This document shows, piece after piece, positions 3,261-25,196 of a DNA stretch of 64,000 nt. The stretch is taken from NCBI GenBank assembly GCA_963769885.1, contig CAVYNH010000006.1, positions 1-64,000 on the forward strand, read 5' to 3'. This DNA is from Methanobacteriota archaeon. GTDB taxonomy: Archaea > Thermoplasmatota > E2 > DHVEG-1. A program made the position numbers and the translations under genes. Under the pieces are notes generated by a model. That model had not been told where the DNA came from, made no database searches, and saw only the letters and a list, made by a program, of their open reading frames with translations. Positions within the stretch are counted from its first letter, which is position 1, and each line of letters begins with the position of its first letter.

Positions 3261-3273
3261 AGAAATTTGTGTT

Positions 3274-3346
3274 GCTCCCGTGGTGTAGTGGCCAATCATA
3301 AAGCCCTCTCGAGGCTTTGACTCGGGTTCAAATCCCGACGGGAGCA
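3274..3346 (+). tRNA. tRNA-Glu(CTC); anchor of the cassette array
   Basis: Acceptor GCTCCCG/CGGGAGC-A, anticodon stem AAGCC-CTCTCGA-GGCTT, T-arm TCGGG-TTCAAAT-CCCGA. No encoded CCA. Confidence 0.95.
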
Positions 3347-3518
3347 TTCCGATAATTAGCACGATTAGAGTATTTTCTAGATCTTCTCCCATTAATATAC
3401 CTGCCAATTATTAGCGCGTAATGGGAGATTTTGATGCCTTTTAACGGTAAAGGAAGGGGGCACTGCTGAGGGTTTATAAAGCATAAAATGTTTTAAACTA
3501 GTGATTTGGGGATCATGT

Positions 3519-6470: not shown

Positions 6471-6546
6471 AAAGTAGCCGATTTATTCGGAGGGCCTATT
6501 TATTCAACTCAAGTCATGTATTGAGGGATTTATAGCCGTGAGTCTT

Positions 6547-6562
6547 AAATCCCGAGGGAGCA
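6547..6562 (+). repeat. att-like repeat R1 (tRNA-Glu 3' end, 1-nt deletion)
   Basis: AAATCCCGA-GGGAGCA; the downstream ~36 nt also resemble the sequence after the tRNA. Confidence 0.85.
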
Positions 6563-11949: not shown

Positions 11950-12002
11950 ATATTGATCTTCTTCCTTTTACAGAAAAAAGGGGATTTATACTCGTGAGCG
12001 CC

Positions 12003-12019
12003 AAATCCCGACGGGAGCA
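12003..12019 (+). repeat. att-like repeat R2
   Basis: AAATCCCGACGGGAGCA, 17/17 identical to tRNA-Glu 3330-3346. Confidence 0.95.
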
Positions 12020-12128
12020 TTTTTTATATATTTATGACGTCACCATTTTAGGGTGAGTTTTAAATCATCTATACAAATTACTTTGCAATACAAAGTATTA
12101 TATACTACAAACTACATATCAGTATATA

Positions 12129-12779
12129 GTGAAAAGAATGACAGAACCAATGAATTTAAAAGAAATCGAAAAAAAAGCATACCGTTTTACATTTACAGAC
12201 GGAATCTATGACCTAACCTATGCCACCTTGCTCATCATGATTGCCCTTGCGCCCATCCTCAGAGAACTCATCGGACTCGGCTACATATTGTTCCTTGTTA
12301 TCCCCGCACCACTTCTCTTACTCCTGGGAATACGATACATCTCCGTTCCACGCATCGGCCTTGTCAAATTTAATCAACACCGAAAGACAACACAAAAAAA
12401 AATAGCAATAATCTGCATCATACTCTTACCACTCACTGTTATACTCGTGCTTCTTACCGCCGCACAAATCTTCCCGGGATCCTACGGAACTCTCCTGGGA
12501 GTATATACCGTACCAATCGGAGGAGCACTCTTTGCTATCGCACTCCTGAGTCTTATCGCCTACTTCATCGAGTTTTCGCACCTCTACGCATACGGGCTTG
12601 CAATCGGTTTAGGCATTCTCATCTCGGAACTTCTCTACGATCCTGTTGCTCCTCCATGGAACAGCGTGATTGCTTTCGGAATCTCAGGCACCCTGTTGTT
12701 TATCTACGGCATCATTGAACTTGTGCGATTCATCCGGACATATCCCCTACCAAAAGAGGAGAACAGTATTGTCAACTAA
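12129..12779 (+). CDS. Multi-pass membrane protein (cassette 3)
   Basis: About 6-7 hydrophobic segments; N-terminal EKKAYR...DGIYD. Confidence 0.75.
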   Translation: MKRMTEPMNLKEIEKKAYRFTFTDGIYDLTYATLLIMIALAPILRELIGLGYILFLVIPAPLLLLLGIRYISVPRIGLVKFNQHRKTTQKKIAIICIILLPLTVILVLLTAAQIFPGSYGTLLGVYTVPIGGALFAIALLSLIAYFIEFSHLYAYGLAIGLGILISELLYDPVAPPWNSVIAFGISGTLLFIYGIIELVRFIRTYPLPKEENSIVN

Positions 12780-13101
12780 AAAAAAGAAAACAATGGAAAA
12801 CAGACAACCGCTGGATTTCATCGATAAAATCATCCATGAACCAGCACGACTCAACATCATGGCTTACTTATATGTTATTGACAGCGCGGATTTCCTATTT
12901 CTCATGCGACAGACAGGACTTACCTTTGGCAACCTCTCCGCGCATATGAGCAAGCTTGAAGATGCAGGATACATACAGATAAAAAAAGAGTTCCTCGGGA
13001 AAAAACCACATACGATGCTCAGCCTCACAAAAAAAGGTCGAACAACTTTTGAAGAATATCGAAATAATATGAAACAGTTTTTTAACGATTTACCCACCTA
13101 A
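12769..13101 (+). CDS. Winged-HTH transcriptional regulator (MarR/ArsR-like) (cassette 3)
   Basis: IIHEPARLNIM...LTFGNLSAHMSKLEDAGYI...LTKKGR. Start is TTG 12769 (after GAGGAG) or ATG 12793. Confidence 0.85.
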   Translation: MSTKKKKTMENRQPLDFIDKIIHEPARLNIMAYLYVIDSADFLFLMRQTGLTFGNLSAHMSKLEDAGYIQIKKEFLGKKPHTMLSLTKKGRTTFEEYRNNMKQFFNDLPT

Positions 13102-13173
13102 CATCCAATTCATCAAAAAAATCTACTCCCCAAAGCTCAAATATGCAGGAGCATTACACTTTAAACATATATG

Positions 13174-13186
13174 CCCGACGGGAGCA
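13174..13186 (+). repeat. att-like repeat R3
   Basis: CCCGACGGGAGCA, 13/13. Confidence 0.9.
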
Positions 13187-14221: not shown

Positions 14222-14229
14222 ATGCACTC

Positions 14230-14242
14230 CCCGACGGGAGCA
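14230..14242 (+). repeat. att-like repeat R4
   Basis: CCCGACGGGAGCA, 8 nt after the HEPN stop codon. Confidence 0.9.
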
Positions 14243-14401
14243 TTTTTTTACTGTCTACAGGAGAAAAATCATCGATTTTTCGAATCCTCACAGGGGCTCT
14301 ATTGCCAGAGGTTCAAAGCCCCCTATGGGTATTTTTACCCTTATTTTTTTGTACTAAAAAAGATTTAAATAACAAACGAGCTTTATTTTTCATAAGGAGG
14401 A

Positions 14402-15439: not shown

Positions 15440-15538
15440 AAAAGGTAAGTATTGAATATCTCGTAACGAATCCCTTTGGGAGATTTTCTGCCAAACCTTC
15501 ACTTCCTCTCGCCTGGGGGCACTGAAGTATTGGCACAT

Positions 15539-15554
15539 AATCCCGACGGAAGCA
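15539..15554 (+). repeat. att-like repeat R5
   Basis: AATCCCGACGGAAGCA, 15/16. Confidence 0.9.
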
Positions 15555-22133: not shown

Positions 22134-22253
22134 ATTCGTATTCCTTTTCATCGAAAATATCATCGGGGGATGCTTACCGCTCGTGAGCGAACTTCGTAGC
22201 GGATTTCATACCAGACAGTAACTTCCTCCTGGGGGTTTGAACCCTTTACATGT

Positions 22254-22269
22254 AATCCCGACGGGAGCA
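22254..22269 (+). repeat. att-like repeat R6
   Basis: AATCCCGACGGGAGCA, 16/16. Confidence 0.95.
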
Positions 22270-22421
22270 TTGTTTCACTGTCTTCAGGAGAAAAAAAGGT
22301 CACTTTTCGCATCCCCTTTTGAGCATTTATGCCAGAGACTCAAATCCATTCCCTTGCATATTTTTATATACATGATTCATGTTACTTGCCATGTATTAGC
22401 ATAGCATAAAGAGGCGGATTA

Positions 22422-23318
22422 ATGAAAAGAAAATGTATGACGGTTGGAATCATTTTCTTGTTCGTGGGAATCAGCGCAATTCAAACGATTGCACAGGATA
22501 CTGAGAAAACGCTACCAACATTAAGAGGTAGTTGGTTGTACGTCGGTGGGAGTGGACCTGGAAACTATTCGAGAATACAGGATGCTATTAATAATGCGAG
22601 TGATGAAAATACGGTTTTTGTATATGATGACAGCTCACCATATTATGAAAATCTTATTATTAATAAATCAATTTCATTGATAGGCGAAAAAAAAGAGACA
22701 ACAATTATTGATGGAAGCGGCGGCAACATAATTATATTGATACAACAAACTGAAAATGTCCAAATACAAGGATTCACTATACGAAACAGCTCACGTTCAA
22801 AAATCGATTGGGATTATGCGAAGGGGATAGGAATTCAACTATTAGCGGCAAAATTTTGTAACATTTCTGATACAATAATTACTAATACAGATGTAGGAAT
22901 CTGTCTATTAAACTATATCTGGAATGAATTTACAGATAGTAATATGCTTTCAAAAAATATTATCATAAAAAATTCATTTGGTATAGCTCTTGATTGGGGA
23001 AGTGGTTACACTACCATAGAAAACAATGACCTTCGACTTAATTGGTACGGGTTAATAATTATCACTACAAATTCTAACACCATTATTAAAAATAATTTTA
23101 TGTGGAATTTCCGTTCGGTTTTACTGACCACTGACATTATGTGGCCGGATGGTAATCCACTCGATGAAATTGATCATAACATGTGGTCAATGAATTATTG
23201 GGGGCGATCTCAGTTTCTTCATCTCATACTTGGTCAAGCAAGAGTGGTCTATGATCATGCATCATGGAATGTTAGATATTTTGAGGTTGACTGGCATCCT
23301 GCACAAGAACCTTACTGA
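22422..23318 (+). CDS. Secreted NosD/CASH-like beta-helix protein (cassette 7)
   Basis: WLYVGGSGPGNYSRIQDAINNA, NYW, DWHPAQEPY. The stop codon lies inside the cassette right arm. Confidence 0.85.
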   Translation: MKRKCMTVGIIFLFVGISAIQTIAQDTEKTLPTLRGSWLYVGGSGPGNYSRIQDAINNASDENTVFVYDDSSPYYENLIINKSISLIGEKKETTIIDGSGGNIIILIQQTENVQIQGFTIRNSSRSKIDWDYAKGIGIQLLAAKFCNISDTIITNTDVGICLLNYIWNEFTDSNMLSKNIIIKNSFGIALDWGSGYTTIENNDLRLNWYGLIIITTNSNTIIKNNFMWNFRSVLLTTDIMWPDGNPLDEIDHNMWSMNYWGRSQFLHLILGQARVVYDHASWNVRYFEVDWHPAQEPY

Positions 23319-23331
23319 ACTATTGGCACGT

Positions 23332-23350
23332 ATTCCCGACGGGAACACCA
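23332..23350 (+). repeat. att-like repeat R7, followed by CCA
   Basis: ATTCCCGACGGGAACA-CCA. Confidence 0.85.
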
Positions 23351-23407
23351 TTGGGGCATTGAATCTCGAGTGATAGTCCCTGGTAGGGGAATTGAAAGGA
23401 AGGCTTT

Positions 23408-25039: not shown

Positions 25040-25180
25040 CGTCGATCACCAGTGACAAAGCATGGACAATAACTATATAATTACTTGTTTGGGAACTGAA
25101 CCTTTGGCCCATATTTCCTTCAGGGGATTTTTGCAAAAATATTCTTCCACGCTCCTGGCGAAAGTGAACCCTCGGTAGGC

Positions 25181-25196
25181 AATCCCGACGGAAGCC
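25181..25196 (+). repeat. att-like repeat R8 (distal end of the array)
   Basis: AATCCCGACGGAAGCC, 14/16, preceded by a family-B right arm. Confidence 0.85.

Follow-up and report, generated by a model that had tools for sequence, protein, structure and literature searches.

How is a row of small gene cassettes that lacks a recombinase gene built up behind an archaeal tRNA gene, and what is the palindromic sequence that closes several of these cassettes? The question is raised by a stretch of archaeal DNA of 64,000 nucleotides (the window), which is the start of contig C6 of a genome of 2.09 Mb that is 92% complete. In a preliminary description of this DNA the right ends of the cassettes were said to fold into imperfect hairpins that end in the tRNA core, with an architecture like that of integron attC sites, and were proposed to be structure-recognised recombination sites that mimic the T-arm of the tRNA.

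Organization of the tRNA-Glu array

The attachment target is the gene for tRNA-Glu(CTC), located at 3273..3347 on the plus strand (called by ARAGORN; 60 bits with the Rfam tRNA model). Its last 14 nt, TCCCGACGGGAGCA, constitute the core, which is repeated downstream in eight copies on the same strand (at approximately 6552, 12006, 13173, 14229, 15541, 22256, 23334 and 25183). The units are bounded by these direct repeats of the tRNA-Glu 3' end, and the array begins at the intact tRNA. The DNA between the cores has a G+C content of about 40%, as compared with 55-60% elsewhere in the window. In an Rfam scan of positions 1-30000 two tRNAs were the only hits, and the arms described below match no family.

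The units of the array are 1-6 kb in size and often contain a single gene. The genes are mostly co-oriented with the tRNA, the hairpin comes after the stop codon, and several cores are followed by T-runs. According to Pfam searches with all larger ORFs, the cargo differs wholly between units. It consists of (1) OsmC and a P-type ATPase, (2) PFK, glucan phosphorylase and pyruvate kinase, (3) a winged-helix protein, (4) an MNT-HEPN toxin-antitoxin pair, (5) two NosD-like proteins, and (6) a solute-binding protein together with a two-component system and a C25 peptidase; glycolytic genes and surface proteins are among the cargo classes in the window. An ORF of 216 aa (12129-12779), directly 3' of the R2 core, belongs to no Pfam family.

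Structure of the right ends

The junctions are numbered R1 to R8 in the order of the cores; all lie on the plus strand. All strings quoted in the preliminary description were found in the window sequence where it had placed them. At R5 the arms begin at 15478 (5' strand) and 15521 (3' strand), and 19 of 24 positions form Watson-Crick pairs once a GA bulge is removed. At R6, GGATTTCAT (22201) pairs with ATGTAATCC (22250) at 8 of 9 positions, and R8 contains GGGATTTTTGC (25124) and GCAATCCC (25179). The stem GGGATTT-N15-AAATCCC is present at R1 (6525/6547) and R2 (11981/12003), and the core itself holds the dyad TCCCG-A-CGGGA. The hairpins end in the tRNA core, as had been claimed: the 3' strand enters AATCCC, the first bases in common with the tRNA. 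The claim that such hairpins stand at the cassette right ends applies to R1, R2, R5, R6 and R8; R3, R4 and R7 are without such a stem.

Two types of right arm were distinguished. The short A-type arm is found at R1 (6525..6562), where the core has a 1-nt deletion, and at R2 (11981..12019), where it is joined to a perfect 20-nt core; homologues of the R2 arm were located at C2:15004 of the same genome and at loci L018, L020, L022 and L024. The B-type arm is an imperfect palindrome of 84 nt, conserved and joined to the 3' end of tRNA-Glu; it is shared by R5, R6 (22191..22269; 58.5 bits with a covariance model) and R8 (25115..25196; 63.2 bits), the core of R8 being degenerate. R7 (23309..23347) has a truncated B-type arm consisting of the 3' strand and the core, and the ORF of the cassette gene extends up to it. 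At R3 (core at 13173..13186) the upstream hairpin is absent. R4 (core at 14229..14242) has no right arm because the frame of the HEPN gene closes 8 nt before the core.

The B-type arm has a modular structure, which is described here for R5. It starts with Y1 (15445..15470), which repeats the arm module farther upstream, is oriented like the hairpin 3' strand, and has its motif on the minus strand at 15453-15465. This is followed by a small dyad, TCCC-TTT-GGGA (15471..15481), similar to the core dyad as well as to the anticodon arm of tRNA-Glu, by X (15478..15503), a module copy in opposite orientation that forms the hairpin 5' strand, by a C-rich/G-rich apical loop region (15504..15520), and by Y2 (15521..15544), the hairpin 3' strand and the most conserved part of the arm family, which continues into the R5 core, TCCCGACGGAAGCA (15541..15554). 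Y1, X and Y2 are three copies of a module of about 30 nt that alternate in orientation and are spaced by CCC-N-GGG dyads, the last of which is the core. X and Y2 can be drawn as a hairpin because they are inverted copies of this module. Among 34 curated genome copies, the motif TGCCAGAnnTTCA lies at -87 from the core on the minus strand in 17, at -51 on the plus strand in 22, and at -16 on the minus strand in 13.

Left ends

The arm motif is also present on the other side of the core. The left arm of cassette 5 (14243..14330, plus strand) contains ACAGGAGAAAA and one copy of the motif, TGCCAGAGGTTCA (14303-14315), at a distance of 74 nt from where the R4 core starts. The left arm of cassette 7 (22270..22360, plus strand) is 74% identical to it and has a motif copy at 22330-22342, so that the 13-nt motif stands at +74 in both. 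Repeated motifs that flank a core on either side, and in either orientation, have the look of a complex attP. Directly 3' of the R7 core, at 23348-23400, a further Y-dyad-X start was observed (GGGGCATTGAATCTCGAGTGATAGT-CCC-TGGTA-GGGGAATTG), and the arm module is therefore also found on the left side of cassette 8.

In addition, the left arms of cassettes 5 and 7 (14295-14325 and 22330-22358) contain a worn tRNA-Leu-like 3' end, GACTCAAATCCATTCCCTTGCA, which occupies 22345-22358 in cassette 7. B-type arms with Glu cores were encountered downstream of tRNA-Leu(gag), not tRNA-Glu, in several other genomes and metagenome contigs (L154, L193, L215, L109). It seems that att pieces of different tRNAs are carried by the cassettes.

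Origin of the arm from tRNA

The idea that the hairpins mimic the T-arm was not borne out. The stem register is GGGATTT/AAATCCC as compared with TCGGG/CCCGA in the T-arm, and the stem encloses 15 nt or about 55 nt as compared with the 7-nt T-arm loop TTCAAAT. Aligned by eye, the R1 arm matches the 3' half of tRNA-Glu, and covariance model R1 also aligns the tRNA itself. The A-type arms of R1 and R2 follow the tRNA, again by eye, from GGCTTT to the 3' end, with the 5' half of the T-arm changed, and on this alignment the GGGATTT strand is the GGCTTT of the tRNA with one change. It looks like the 3' strand of the anticodon stem, carried along in a tRNA-derived att site, and not like a purpose-built mimic of the T-arm.

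In the B-type arm the small dyad and the bases that follow it resemble the tRNA-Glu anticodon arm (by eye). Locus L063 reads GCCCTAATCGAGCATT where tRNA-Glu has GCCCTCTCGAGGCTTT, and at L038 the D-loop and anticodon arm of tRNA-Glu(TTC) are matched exactly over 21 nt. An arrangement in which X-Y2 is an empty cassette between two cores (a 'null cassette') was considered and set aside, the small dyad being degenerate in the same way in all copies. For the same reason the arm module was inherited as a unit and not formed repeatedly.

Conservation and covariation

Extra tRNA-Glu cores occur in many genomes of the archaeal family, and the DNA that precedes them can be grouped into a small number of arm types common to different genera. 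The covariance model (R1) was made from eight aligned B-type copies with a three-helix structure; with it, the full-length 84-nt element was detected in 26 of 108 family genomes, belonging to several genera. The pattern of 3' strand plus core matched 67 metagenome contigs from freshwater, wetland and sediment, which yielded 57 distinct full hairpins. The 5' strand is missing from the copies at R7, L027 and L079. Scans of viral contigs with the B-type and A-type arm patterns gave no match. Occurrences of the 3' strand beside other tRNA cores were rejected, since matches with three mismatches were coding noise and those with few mismatches all lay on Glu cores; one B-type arm, in genome G021, has an Arg(GCG)-like core. 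At L104:9741-9852 (genome G008) lies a tRNA-Glu some 112 nt long that ARAGORN does not call and that probably contains an intron.

In the 34 genome copies 72-77% of the stem cells are paired, versus 26-50% with slid partners, pairing-preserving double changes are found in 36-45 cells versus 7-24 in controls, and the covariation score is 0.18-0.19 versus at most 0.10 in controls. Stem pairing in the metagenome set is 78.8% (20-55% when slid), and all five measures exceed those of 500 out of 500 shuffles. The palindrome is therefore genuine and conserved, as opposed to a match that arose by chance in a single window. The new element is a defined, widespread family of palindromic arms. Within the 20-kb island GGGATT occurs eight times, three of them not more than 75 nt upstream of a core; the chance of finding it in a random 70-nt window of the island is P = 0.026, although these occurrences are not independent events because the arms are homologous.

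Some covariation on homologous sites, which the preliminary description had named as a check on its proposal, was thus present in the form of pairing-preserving changes above controls. Matching within a site hardly exceeds matching between sites. In the genome copies X fits the reverse complement of Y2 with a score of 8.85 within sites and 7.9 between sites, and in the metagenome copies the values are 9.54 and 9.20 (permutation p = 0.057). X fits Y1 with a score of 7.3, near that of X with Y2. It is chiefly the family consensus that is complementary to itself.

The arm could also be a functionless relic, namely the diverged 3' two-thirds of tRNA-Glu with a palindromic insert, inherited along with a functional core-proximal segment of about 30 nt. 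The likeness of the 5' flank to the tRNA-Glu anticodon arm (L063, L038) and of GGGATTT to GGCTTT would fit such an origin, as would the truncated copies that retain the 3' strand only and the weak energy signal reported below. Neutral sequence should decay faster, however, than is compatible with the retention of the full 84 nt and of its pairing across several genera, in 57 metagenome copies and next to differing cargo. This explanation is considered unlikely.

Folding energies and strand bias

Folding energies of single-stranded DNA were expressed as z scores of the top and bottom strand against shuffled sequence, with the sites trimmed to the claimed ends. The values were -3.5/-5.4 for R1, -1.4/-1.3 for R2, -1.5/-3.4 for R5, -0.3/-0.3 for R6 and +0.3/+0.3 for R8. 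With 70 nt of natural flank on the sites, the bottom strand of R5 alone stands out (z -2.1). The expectation that the sites fold better than shuffled controls therefore holds for R1 and for the bottom strand of R5, and fails for most sites of the window, R2, R6 and R8 being no better than shuffles. The 34 genome copies have a median z of -0.8, with only 7-9 of them below -2 and about equal values for top and bottom strand. A few copies are strong hairpins, with z of -4 to -5.6 (L026, L033, L018). Stem mismatches of G-T versus A-C number 95/64 in the genome copies and 88/71 in the metagenome copies; the excess of G-T is due to one column and reverses once this column is removed. Neither strand, nor RNA, is favoured by the stem mismatches.

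These values bear on a role of the hairpin at the RNA level, as the 3' end of the cassette transcript (stabiliser, terminator or an insulator that separates co-oriented cassettes) that finishes with a tRNA tail and a T-rich terminator. The co-orientation of most genes with the tRNA, the position of the hairpin after the stop codon and the T-runs after several cores agree with it, and with RNA parameters the median z of the 34 copies is -2.1 for the sense strand versus -1.75 for the antisense strand. An excess of G-U over A-C is nevertheless lacking after removal of the one column, and the same module occurs upstream in opposite orientation and in the left arms. To our knowledge, archaeal termination needs no hairpins. 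A role as an RNA element is regarded as very unlikely.

The comparison with attC fits the layout of the sites well, whereas a folded-DNA mechanism finds little support. Taken as a mechanism, the comparison would mean that the cassettes are recombined as folded single-stranded DNA, X pairing with Y2 and the small dyad with the core, by which a duplex core is rebuilt at the base of the hairpin. The cassettes do end 3' in a conserved, imperfect palindrome that varies in length (29 nt for A-type and 84 nt for B-type arms) and has the core at its 3' base, covariation is above controls, and the bottom strand of R5 and the strongest relatives fold well. Columns 2-5, which form the outer pyrimidine tract, are able to pair with the GGG..G of the core and vary only between C and T. 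On the other hand, most energies are no better than in the controls, there is no strand asymmetry, pairing within sites is about the same as between sites, the 5' strand pairs nearly as well with the third, upstream module, conserved left arms with arm motifs are present in cassettes 5 and 7, copies without a 5' strand exist, and there is neither IntI nor an R box. The boxes were sought by a pattern search of the junctions: no RYYYAAC...GTTRRRY pair spans a junction and no core has GTTRRRY, in agreement with the preliminary description. IntI was sought in the whole genome, where the best match to TIGR02249 reached 45.8 bits (cut-off 265). Recombination of this attC-like kind is unlikely.

Mobility of the cassettes

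When contigs of three other metagenomes were mapped on the array, single cassettes were seen to break at cores. One contig of 1407 nt corresponds to 12006-13182 (cassette 3) with unrelated flanks on both sides, and loose ends were found at 3348 and 22269. In a contig from an independent sediment metagenome, 15556 is joined to 14243, so that cassette 5 is linked to itself, right end to left end; this joint represents either an excised circle or a tandem copy. The cassettes move as whole units.

Copies of tRNA tails that close units of 0.4-3.6 kb (mostly 1-2 kb) were detected at about ten other tRNA genes of this genome. These include the genes for tRNA-Pro, Glu-TTC and two Leu (C1:42299-46221, C2:13859-15019, C4:197701-200111, C4:358553-360471) and for Ser, Val, Met and Leu-CAG (C6:217416-217922, C6:598422-599869, C6:741883-742919, C7:164948-166426). 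Small integrase-less cassettes are thus a habit of the whole genome, and tRNA-Glu is no special case.

At the Pro(cgg) and Met tRNAs the integrase-less cassettes are closed by a second type of arm, CTCCTGTTGACC-N8-10-core, and the same CTCCTGTTGACC arm closes an 8.4-kb element with a tyrosine integrase at tRNA-Pro(tgg). This is the relation expected between autonomous elements and non-autonomous derivatives. In this family the inverted partner ACAGGAGAAAA follows a few bases after the core, and the core is flanked by inverted repeats of about 22-35 nt. The cassette ends at Arg(gcg) have a variant arm, CTCCTGTTGGGC, about 25 nt from the core. Sites of the family and its variants are located at C1:44407-44461 (the tRNA-Pro(cgg) junction), C6:590090-590143, C7:75523, C7:81994 and C7:200081-208540. 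The arm family is associated with Pro and Met cores, and in relatives also with Glu cores. A GGGAT...ATCCC stem at the attR of a tRNA-His element bears a loose likeness to the A-type stems.

A stray A-type arm with a Glu core (jointly TCCCGACGGGAGAA) was observed on the minus strand at C4:93595-94740 (L006), far from any tRNA-Glu. It adjoins broken integrase fragments, and the region C4:93-133 kb has four integrase matches.

Direct repeats of 14-16 nt of a tRNA 3' end with abutting inverted repeats, clearest at tRNA-Pro(cgg) with about 22-35 nt, are also what casposon-type units would leave, the 14-nt core being a target-site duplication and the inverted arms the terminal inverted repeats of an insertion by a Cas1 casposase. 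Family 2 casposons target tRNA-Pro. This reading was rejected since Cas1 is absent: PF01867 has no match in this genome, and good matches among relatives occur solely in genomes without the hairpin. The weak matches in hairpin-rich genomes are spurious and fall in the linker of an enzyme. It is a 670-aa fusion of a PLP-dependent enzyme (PALP) and a PAPS reductase (L229:526-2538, genome G120), with homologues in seven genomes of the same genus. Moreover, the elements with the same arm type carry tyrosine integrases. An insertion by a casposase is extremely unlikely.

Candidate recombinases

Pfam searches detected no recombinase in the larger ORFs of the array, and no integrase lies in or beside it. 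Eight matches to tyrosine recombinases (PF00589) are present in the genome, all outside the array. The archaeal family has tRNA-adjacent tyrosine integrases with a C-terminal zinc ribbon after the catalytic domain. One is located after tRNA-His in this genome, inside a 12.9-kb element, another directly after tRNA-Glu(TTC) in a sister genome (L111:1492-2721), and others after tRNA-Thr, -Phe and -Arg. Genes for tRNA-Glu, -Thr, -Phe, -Arg and -His are followed, at about 50 nt, by homologues of the zinc-ribbon integrases at L111:1492-2721 and L125:1486-2733. Based on a hand count among related genomes, the integrase family is weakly associated with the hairpin (11 of 26 hairpin genomes versus 22 of 82 others).

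The searches revealed no integrase-bearing element with a B-type arm, and no tRNA-Glu integrase was found in this 92%-complete genome. Likewise, tblastn with the eight integrases of the genome against the array loci of G129, G124, G120 and G008 gave nothing, and no attR of the integrase-bearing elements at tRNA-Phe, -Thr and -Arg was found in relatives, the contigs of which are too short. In the sister genome G001, contigs C22 and C23, which would link the tRNA-Glu(TTC) integrase to a B-type arm, share no overlap.

Comparison with known systems

The sites resemble the attC sites of integrons, including archaeal integrons (Ghaly et al. 2022, PMC9668308), in that promoter-poor cassettes, mostly of one gene, end 3' in an imperfect palindrome of variable length, the crossover is at the base of the palindrome, and the cassettes are stacked one way with accessory cargo. 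They differ from attC in the absence of IntI and of RYYYAAC/GTTRRRY, in a core that is the 3' end of a tRNA, and in an array that starts at the tRNA, not at attI. Furthermore, the left ends also have conserved arms, strand-specific folding is not indicated, and the arm sequence itself is conserved.

A close parallel is offered by CIMEs and tandem accretion (ICESt1/ICESt3; the ssrA islands of Dehalococcoides, PMC3146451), where tandem units stand behind a tRNA or tmRNA gene and are closed by repeats of its 3' end, many units have no module for integration, and the repeat is closely preceded by a conserved motif. Fifteen integrase-less islands with a 15-bp motif are reported for Dehalococcoides ssrA, and integrase-less arrays of such kind are known in bacteria (PMC3146451). 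The units described here are far smaller (1-6 kb), the host is an archaeon, and alternating modules of 84-125 nt take the place of the 15-bp motif. The putative partner here is a tyrosine recombinase with a zinc ribbon, as opposed to a serine recombinase in Dehalococcoides.

With the complex attP sites of heterobivalent tyrosine integrases (lambda type, P/P') and the archaeal SNJ2 integrase sites (PMC5861418) the arms have in common a core made of a tRNA 3' end, conserved arms on both sides and motifs in both orientations; an accessory DNA-binding protein has been proposed for the SNJ2 arms (PMC5861418). For those sites, a nested palindromy of the arm has not been described. Two inverted copies of a site that could fold into a duplex recombination site are also a property of the attP of the CTX phage. 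That attP is a folded single-stranded DNA substrate of XerCD. Compared with it the stem is much less perfect here, and no single-stranded stage of the cassettes is known.

Proposed function of the arm

The explanation preferred here, to which an even chance is given, is that the hairpin belongs to the P arm of a tRNA-Glu-derived complex attP, and that the cassettes are CIME-like units moved in trans, with docking of protein on duplex DNA. The right (P) arm of the attachment site would close small non-autonomous cassettes, and its module copies would be bound, as duplex DNA, by a tRNA-specific tyrosine integrase or by an accessory DNA-binding protein that an integrase-bearing element provides in trans. 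Recombination between the core and the tRNA-Glu 3' end would be the work of this complex, and the cassettes would stack by accretion.

Docking on arms is suggested by the position of the motif at fixed offsets and the arms at both ends of cassettes 5 and 7, by a complementarity that is mostly of the consensus, with no strand bias and weak folding of single-stranded DNA, and by the wide conservation of the arm together with the breakage of cassettes at cores in independent metagenomes. Supply in trans is suggested by the array without an integrase, the tRNA-adjacent integrases of relatives and the arm types common to integrase-bearing elements. Several results argue against docking. Nested complementarity extends from one end of the 84 nt to the other and takes in GGGATT/AATCCC as well as the apical CCCC/GGGG, which arm-type sites by themselves would not require. 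The double changes (36-45 versus 7-24 cells) were equalled by 0 of 500 shuffles, some copies are strong hairpins, and neither a B-type integrase element nor, in this genome, a tRNA-Glu integrase was found. Alternatively, the arm might be a structure-recognised site, as originally proposed, in which a folded strand (X on Y2, small dyad on core) rebuilds a duplex tRNA-Glu tail for use by a tRNA-specific integrase. This is judged quite unlikely.

Implications

If the arm is a structure-recognised site, it would be an archaeal, tRNA-anchored functional analogue of integron attC that evolved independently from a tRNA fragment, and with a palindrome acting as folded DNA the integron principle would have arisen a second time, independently. 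As a duplex docking site, the arm would be an unusually elaborate att arm built from tRNA-derived pieces. Recombinase-less one-gene cassettes behind tRNA genes seem to be common in uncultured archaea. The 84-125-nt arm is a searchable marker for a widespread cassette family in Thermoplasmatota of freshwater and wetland sediment, and it allows the cassettes to be catalogued, their cargo to be read and the partner integrase to be sought.
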